A stretch of DNA of 64,000 nucleotides from the NCBI RefSeq assembly GCF_000027125.1, contig NC_017626.1. One strand, written 5' to 3'. Below, in pieces: positions 35,783 through 37,972 of this stretch. Position 1 is the stretch's first letter. Every line of letters starts with the position of its first letter. Position numbers and translations under genes: made by a program. Below the pieces are notes generated by a model. It had not been told where the DNA came from. It saw only the letters and a list, made by a program, of their open reading frames with translations, and made no database searches. The DNA is from Escherichia coli 042. Lineage in GTDB: Bacteria; Pseudomonadota; Gammaproteobacteria; Enterobacterales; Enterobacteriaceae.

Positions 35783-37972
35783 TCAGAATTGATACGTGCC
35801 GGTAATGCTGAAATTACGCGGTGCGCCGTAGACGATAGAACCTTCCACGTTGGTATCATAGGTTTTGTCGAACAGGTTATTGACGTTCCCCTGTAACGAG
35901 AAGTTTTTCGTCACCTGGTAGCGGGTGAAGAGATCCACCAGCGCGTAGCTACCTTGCTCGGCGCGGAAGGTGCCATACGGTGTCACGGTGTCGGTATACA
36001 CGCGATTTTGCCAGTTAACACCACCGCCGACCGTCAACTCTGGCATGACAGGCAACCGATAGCTGGTGAACATTTTAACCGTGGTGCGTGGCAGATTAGG
36101 ATTAACGGCGTTTCCTTCGTTATCCTCTGCAATATAGCGCGTTGCGCCAAACGTCAGCTGCCAGTTGTCGGTAATTGCGCCGTTGAGCTCAAATTCCACA
36201 CCTTTACTGACTGTCCCATCCACCGCTTTATAGGCGGTTTCGCCGTTGCTGCCGGGGATAGGTGTACCGGTGGACTGAGCGACATTATCCTGCTCAATAC
36301 GGAAGATGGCTAACGTGGTGGTCAGACGGCTATTCATCCAGTCCGATTTCAGACCCAGCTCGTAGTTGTTACCGGTGATTGGAGCCAGATATTTGCCTGA
36401 ACTGTCACGATCATTTTGCGGCTGGAAAATAGAGGTATAGCTGGCGTAGGTCGACCAGTTGTCATTGATGTCAAACACCAGACCAGCATAAGGCGTGGTG
36501 TGGTTTTTCTCCATGCTGTAAGTCAGCGTATCAACCCGCCAGTTGGTATAACGTGCGCCGAGGATCAGATGCAGCGGATCGGCAAGGGTGACACGAGTGG
36601 CAGCATATAACGATTTCATATGTGTGGTATCGTCCTGCGCCAGACTCTGTGGTGACCAGTCGGTTTGTGGGAAATTGCCATTAAAGTTGTAGAAACTGCC
36701 AATTTCATTCGGGAAGATGTTGGCCCATGAACTGAAGTAACGATTGTTTTGTTTGCTGTAACTGCCACCAAACATTAGATTGTGCTGACGACCAAACAAT
36801 TCATAACTACCGTCAGCGAACAAATCCAGCGCATCAACTTTACGTTTGCCGCTGTTCCAACCGGTGCCGCCGACATAATCAAAGCCAGGTCCATAATTAC
36901 TGTATGGCCCAACCAGCATACCATCCGCTTTGTTTACATAGGCATCGACATACATCATTTTGCTGTCAAATTCGACTTCGGAGTGGGTGGCATTCAGTGT
37001 CGCTTGCCAGGTATCAGCAAACCGCTGCTTCAGGGTCATAAAAACCTTGTTGATCTCTTTATCGTTGTACGCCCAGTCAGGTGCGGTACTGCGTGCGCGA
37101 TCGTAACTGTTGCTGCTGCCATCAGTATTCCAGCGCGGTAAACCGCCCCACGTTGGGCTATTAACATCAATGCGCTGATATTCGTAACCGGCTGAAAGCG
37201 TCGTAAGATCGCCTAAATCAGCATCAACAATGCCGGAGAAGAAGGTCTTTTCACTGTTGTAGCGGTCCAGCCATGAGTCGTTATTCTGGTAGCCGCCGAC
37301 AATTCGCGCGCGGATTTTACCATCTTCGGTGAGTGGACTTTGTAAATCCGCCACATACCGTTCTTTGTTCCAGCTACCGTATTCTGCCGAGACATCGCCT
37401 TTAAATTCACGACTGGTCGCGTGTTTTCGAACCATATTAATTGCCGCAGATGGATTACCCGTCCCGGTCATGAGTCCTGTCGCGCCACGTACTACTTCTA
37501 CGCGTTCAAACAGTGCCATATCAGAAAGTGCGTCGCCCAGATTCCAGCGCGATTCAAAATAGGTGGGGATACCATCAACCATATAGTTATCGATCTGGAA
37601 TCCGCGGGAATAATAAAGAGCACGATCGGAATCCGCCTGACTTTTGCTGATCCCCAGCGTGTTTTCCATCACTTCGCCCAGCGTTTGTAACTGCTGATCT
37701 TCCATCCGCTGCTGACTAACAATAGTGACCGACTGAGGAATATCACGTTGAGTCATCTGCATTTTGGTACCCGCAGAGGTAGACGTTACGCTGTAATCAT
37801 TTTCGTCATCAACTGGAGTAGTGGCTGAACCCTCAACAATCACCGTTTCTTCAGTGGCTGGTGCAGCAAAAGCGGCGGAAGGTAAGAGTGCCAGTGCTAT
37901 GCAGGCGGCAAGCAGTGACGGTTTGGAGGTGGTTTGCTGTTGATTATCCCTGTTAAATTATGTTGAAAGCAT
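35783..37972 (-). pseudogene. fhuE: fhuE (TonB-dependent coprogen/ferrioxamine B/rhodotorulic acid receptor) with in-frame TAA at codon 5
   Basis: Canonical start ATG at 37972 reads ATG CTT TCA ACA TAA (M L S T stop); the frame then continues without an ATG/GTG/TTG through a signal-peptide-like stretch (KPSLLAACIALALLPSAAFAAPATEE) into the full-length receptor ending at 35783. The first possible restart is a GTG after the signal peptide (track ORF 35783-37843). Confidence 0.7.

Follow-up and report, generated by a model that had tools for sequence, protein, structure and literature searches.

Whether the enteroaggregative Escherichia coli strain 042 still makes FhuE is put in question by the fifth codon of its fhuE reading frame, which is a stop. 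The receptor takes up Fe-coprogen with a Kd of about 0.5 uM, Fe-rhodotorulic acid with one of about 30 uM and ferrioxamine B only weakly; this transport function is known for the K-12 protein (PMC6503915). The locus lies in the window analysed here, a stretch of 64,000 nucleotides from the 042 chromosome of 5,241,977 bp (PMC2808357). We hold with high confidence that the codon-5 change is a genuine, very recent and most likely inactivating nonsense mutation of the 042 clone. In biological terms the 042 fhuE is an ordinary strain-lineage pseudogene, and the issues that follow from it are how young it is, why the gene was lost, whether any function could leak through and how the annotation of the strain came to hide it.

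A premature stop in an otherwise intact frame

The reverse complement of the window from 37972 to 37958 reads ATG CTT TCA ACA TAA, and translation of the whole frame gives MLST, the stop, FNRDNQQQTTSKPSLLAACIALALLPSAAFA and then, past the cleavage site, APATEE and onwards. The codon-5 TAA is the sole internal stop in 729 codons; after it the frame continues FNRDNQQQTTSKPSLLAACIALALLPSAAFAAPATEETVIVEG and so on, stop-free up to the natural terminator and with no frameshift, and the 724 downstream codons are all open and identical to those of an intact allele. The derived base is window position 37960, a coding-strand T (plus-strand A) where relatives have C, so that CAA becomes TAA and Gln5 an ochre codon. 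An initial annotation of this DNA, made from its letters, had read the same five codons, had given MLSTQFNRDNQ as the intact N-terminus, and had proposed a single C-to-T change at 37960 in an ancestral CAA with the signal peptide and barrel still in frame beyond it. All of these points stood: intact orthologues have that N-terminus, all the comparators aligned (VCSW5, 118UI, K-12 MG1655, a metagenome strain and two NCTC genomes) read CAA at codon 5, and an intact 729-aa FhuE, P0002, is identical to the window's protein apart from Q at position 5.

The position of the start is equally well fixed. Intact fhuE is annotated from the same ATG in VCSW5, 118UI, K-12 (b1102), the NCTC genomes and the metagenome strain, and so the start in related strains does not lie downstream of the mutated codon, which the initial annotation had named as a finding that would undo its case. 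No start further upstream is possible, for the frame is closed by a TAA six codons 5' of the ATG. With this TAA upstream and an AAGAG just ahead of the start, no canonical start other than the ATG at 37972 can give a protein that includes the signal peptide. The coordinates are collected in Table 1.

Table 1. Features of the fhuE locus and of the insertion element in the window, in window coordinates
Feature	Position	Strand	Description and basis
fhuE frame	35783..37972	-	729 codons plus natural stop; locus Ec042-1172; translation, NF007447, Pfam
fhuE ATG start	37970..37972	-	annotated start also in intact orthologues
Premature ochre stop TAA, codon 5	37958..37960	-	sequence and alignments
Shine-Dalgarno-like AAGAG	37980..37984	-	about 7 nt 5' of the ATG; same in relatives
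In-frame TAA	37988..37990	-	six codons 5' of the ATG; read directly
Sec signal peptide, codons 1-36	37865..37972	-	variable n-region, h-region LLAACIALALLP, cleavage between AFA and AP; 6e4v and translation
GTG codon 44	37841..37843	-	first canonical in-frame restart; within ETVIV, the TonB-box stretch of mature FhuE
ptsG	34290..35723	+	convergent with fhuE
Sigma-70 promoter-like site	38076..38104	-	TTTACA, 17 nt spacer, TATATT; 10/12 consensus matches only
Approximate predicted Fur-binding region	38061..38093		homology with MG1655 Fur ChIP-exo peak P31 (PMC10164565 supplement)
IS1397-like orfA	21792-22322	-	IS3-family
IS1397-like orfB	20965-21687	-	IS3-family

That the gene is fhuE is clear on several counts. 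The protein is a whole-protein match, above the curated cut-off, to the FhuE and TonB-dependent siderophore receptor family (NF007447, TIGR01783). Against the FhuE equivalog NF007447 (cut-off 666) the repaired 729-aa sequence scores 1539 bits and the 686-aa product that starts at GTG44 scores 1470.6 bits, the latter spanning profile positions 44-727 only, and records of the product show Plug (PF07715) and barrel (PF00593) domains. The mature protein and the solved FhuE structure, PDB 6e4v, are nearly identical (E = 0, 1577 bits, with few substitutions in the alignment as printed). As in K-12, fhuE is flanked by ptsG (convergent) and hinT (divergent), and the start codon and upstream region are shared with the intact K-12 gene. 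What differs from intact FhuE is codon 5, TAA and not CAA, which leaves the signal peptide and barrel untranslated from the native start. The gene of 042 is thus an fhuE by sequence, domains and synteny, but its export signal is not translated together with its barrel.

Age of the mutation

The 042 gene has an in-frame stop where its close relatives have a sense codon, and the ancestral state can be read from those relatives. P0002 is carried by LR134238, LR134246 and contig LECL01000097, and over 22.19 kb (22,190 bases) only 4 substitutions set these apart from the window: the nonsense change at 37960, a difference in codon 124 of comR, one synonymous change in nagZ and one in fabF. So few substitutions separating 042 from relatives with the intact gene, with no secondary decay of the frame, make the mutation very young, in keeping with the recent inactivation, rather than old decay, that the initial annotation had supposed. 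By comparison, the nearest complete genomes in the collection searched are 99.2% identical over fhuE and 98.9% over 24 kb.

Two side observations belong to the same comparison. Codon 124 of comR (ycfQ; window 44978) is Ala (GCT) in 042 and Val (GTT) in the relatives, and apart from codon 5 it is the one residue in the 22 kb at which 042 and these closest relatives differ. The long-read assemblies LR134238.1 and LR134246.1 have 8-10 single-base indels in 22 kb when set against the window and against Illumina-type contigs, and in the gene calls the indels of the NCTC assemblies split ptsG, ndh, mfd, lpoB and hinT. These indels are likely to be long-read assembly errors rather than real pseudogenes.

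Other early lesions and the probable cause of the loss

Early lesions of fhuE are found on other backgrounds too. In a set of 5,426 complete E. coli genomes, the 042-type 5' sequence is matched by 278, none of which has the TAA; a K-12-type 71-mer with TAA is present exactly in three, ET76, EC6 and ES1, whose 6-kb regions are mutually identical. These three are Chinese environmental or animal isolates, with the fhuE locus at 3039-5228 of the extracted regions. Their allele has the same CAA to TAA change at codon 5 as 042, but its fhuE differs from that of 042 at 37 of 2,190 positions, the nearest being 1 nt 5' of the ATG and in codon 12, and so the change must have arisen independently of that in 042. 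A second kind of lesion, ATG to ATA at the start codon, occurs exactly in 15 of the 5,426 genomes, with the ATA annotated as start (e.g. strain BE2-5, 239). This allele is of K-12-type background, and what it loses is efficient initiation at codon 1. The 686-aa truncated product of K-12 type is found on 246 contigs, and the one read at nucleotide level (Logan SRR29155114, 271-273) has the ATG to ATA start. A 44-mer with the codon-5 stop, taken in both backgrounds, gave no matches in JGI metagenome contigs.

The simplest and likeliest cause of the loss is probably relaxed selection, because 042 retains many other iron systems: it keeps enterobactin and has extra haem, yersiniabactin, Fit, Sit and Fec systems (PMC2808357). 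Separate events have also made fhuE a pseudogene in Salmonella Typhi and Paratyphi A, cited as convergent gene loss or as a shared tolerance of its loss (PMC2658671). The parallel has its limits, in that the Salmonella cases are of another species, with other lesions and a genome-wide accumulation of pseudogenes in host-restricted pathogens, whereas that of 042 is a lone point mutation, very young and in a region of the genome with nothing else unusual about it.

An adaptive loss, in which FhuE is turned off to escape a phage, a bacteriocin, a sideromycin or a host response, and in which lesions 5' of the signal peptide would be favoured because no mis-targeted barrel fragment results, is in our view unlikely. 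The second codon-5 stop on an allele 37 positions removed, the start-codon lesion in 15 genomes, the K-12-type truncated products and the independent Salmonella pseudogenes could all be fitted to it. But the alleles are rare (3 and 15 of 5,426 genomes), the search was aimed only at these early lesions, so that their clustering may be an ascertainment effect, and as 51 fhuE codons can become a stop by a single transition, one coincidence is unremarkable. We know of no FhuE-specific killer. A role of FhuE as a phage receptor is unsupported, as no phage of the BASEL collection depends on fhuE or showed a phenotype on fhuE::kan (PMC8594841) and an INSeq paper merely lists the gene. Papers that touch on fhuE in cefiderocol resistance or in O157 super-shedders make passing mentions and have no bearing on the 042 allele.

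Quite unlikely, too, is the idea that codons 1-5 of fhuE could be hit repeatedly as a way of turning the gene off (a codon-5 stop twice over and the change of ATG to ATA) under selection against surface FhuE by phage, bacteriocin or sideromycin, with no toxic mis-targeted barrel fragment made. Given the number of codons a transition away from a stop and a search confined to early lesions, the doubly arisen codon-5 stop is no proof of a hotspot or of selection. No Dcm site (CCWGG) was seen around the mutated C on reading of the sequence. The recurrence of early fhuE lesions is suggestive but does not amount to evidence for a hotspot or for selection; relaxed selection is the reading we keep.

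Signal peptide, restart codons and possible residual function

The chain of PDB 6e4v aligns from residue 37 (APATEE), and so the signal peptide has 36 residues and mature FhuE begins at 37. The stop at codon 5 parts the start codon from the signal peptide, such that signal and mature protein no longer form one translation unit. Between codon 1 and GTG44 there is no ATG, GTG or TTG in frame; the only start-like codons there are CTG20, ATA25 and CTG27. Since GTG44 lies beyond the mature start at residue 37, a product restarted there has no signal peptide, as the initial annotation had argued for the internal GTG. Translation would accordingly be expected to begin at the normal ATG and to end after four residues, and any GTG44 restart product, devoid of the export signal and of part of the TonB box, would be left in the cytoplasm and would give no outer-membrane transporter. 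On these grounds, which are those of sequence, FhuE, a protein of roughly 77 kDa, should be absent from the outer membrane of 042 and the uptake of coprogen, rhodotorulate and ferrioxamine B through it has probably been lost.

Some function could in principle be kept by a leaky allele, through read-through of the ochre codon, a suppressor tRNA, or near-cognate initiation at CTG20, ATA25 or CTG27 that leaves the signal peptide its hydrophobic core. Of the tRNA genes, of which the 042 genome has 93, ARAGORN found none in the 64-kb window, and so the window does not bear on a suppressor. Both the h-region and the cleavage site do lie downstream of CTG20, and the first 16 signal-peptide residues differ among strains (QYQAIT, QHQTTS, QQQTTS), which suggests that they are dispensable. 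The NCBI pipeline, moreover, annotates the K-12-type codon-5 stop allele of ET76, EC6 and ES1 from an ATC at codon 15, as an intact protein of 715 aa (WP_215716821.1), and so masks the stop. But codon 15 of 042 is ACC and not ATC, no Shine-Dalgarno-like sequence stands ahead of CTG20, ATA25 or CTG27, and a product from codon 20 would have lost R8 and K17, the charged residues of the n-region. Initiation at near-cognate codons reaches about 1% of the ATG level or less, and the base 3' of the premature stop is T, which makes the context TAAT, the most efficient for termination in E. coli. Leakage sufficient to rescue the receptor is therefore very unlikely, and inactivation remains the preferred reading.

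If so, the biological consequence is small: the EAEC reference strain 042 is probably unable to exploit coprogen and rhodotorulic acid, siderophores made by fungi. For work on iron uptake, siderophore conjugates or xenosiderophores, 042 is best regarded as naturally mutant in fhuE unless the contrary is shown.

The mutation in the clone and in its annotation

The stop is not confined to the reference sequence. A 160 kb contig assembled de novo with MEGAHIT from a metagenome (ERZ27279525) has the TAA and three other 042-derived bases, with one private SNP relative to the window, at 41420, in 22,061 nt. The private SNP makes this contig a non-identical member of the 042 clone and, together with the TAA, means that it is no copy of the reference and that the stop is no sequencing error, which disposes of the caveat that the initial annotation had raised about the raw reads. 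The truncated 686-aa product of 042 type occurs on 43 contigs across NCBI, ENA and Logan, the nucleotides having been read for one, such that the other 42 are known by product alone and could have a different early lesion. That the TAA is an error of sequencing or assembly in a strain that truly has CAA can accordingly be given hardly any probability, even though finished genomes do contain single-base errors and the 2010 genome paper has fhuE (Ec042-1172, its Table S5) in its iron-uptake table with no remark on disruption and a silent main text (PMC2808357), for against this stand the independent assembly, the truncated products in three collections and a study by EC042_RS tags that has no fhuE entry for 042 (PMC10164565).

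That last study bears on the regulation of the gene as well. The promoter and upstream region of the 042 fhuE is base-for-base the same as in relatives with the intact allele, and the Fur-region candidate, which overlaps the promoter-like TTTACA/TATATT pair, is placed about 89-121 nt 5' of the ATG by a gap-free alignment with K-12 there, the conversion from older genome coordinates being inferred. A naive scan with a 19-mer Fur consensus gave a weak best match of 11/19, and the placement draws instead on the ChIP-exo homology. There is no gene 3' of fhuE in its transcription unit, and so the stop has no polar effect on its neighbours. Deletion of fur in eight further E. coli strains derepresses fhuE by log2 3.0-8.4 (PMC10164565 supplements). 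The nine-strain Fur regulon study, which uses RefSeq EC042_RS tags, has fhuE as 'N/A' for 042 alone, and it is only because 042 has no entry that the gene is filed as 'accessory' and not 'core' (PMC10164565, supplementary files 5 and 6). The 'accessory' class of fhuE is therefore a downstream consequence of the nonsense mutation, and the 'N/A' points, indirectly, to a RefSeq annotation of 042 in which fhuE is not among the protein-coding genes.

The mutation is of a familiar kind, sits in a published reference genome and is already implicit in such downstream analyses; we found no paper that states it explicitly. The practical value of recognising it lies in the annotation. GenBank holds, for the 042 chromosome, a 686-aa "receptor" from the internal GTG (CBG33990.1, UniRef100_D3H1R8), an exact match to the GTG44-started product, and the iron table of the genome paper counts fhuE as present. 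Early fhuE lesions are in fact masked by three conventions for alternative starts, at GTG44, at ATC15 and at ATA, as a result of which gene-content tables overstate FhuE function.

Elsewhere in the window

Two further features of the window may be recorded. Between rluC and yceF, at 20885-22431, lies an IS3-family element of IS1397-like type, and K-12 is without an element there. Between flgL and rne there is about 1 kb of accessory DNA, at 15157-16166, in which a 169-aa ORF (15250-15759) had no NCBIfam match. In other genomes this segment is annotated as a GNAT-family acetyltransferase with a DUF1778/TacA-type antitoxin, a TacAT-like toxin-antitoxin pair, and it is present at a coverage of at least 80% in 685 of the 5,426 complete genomes.
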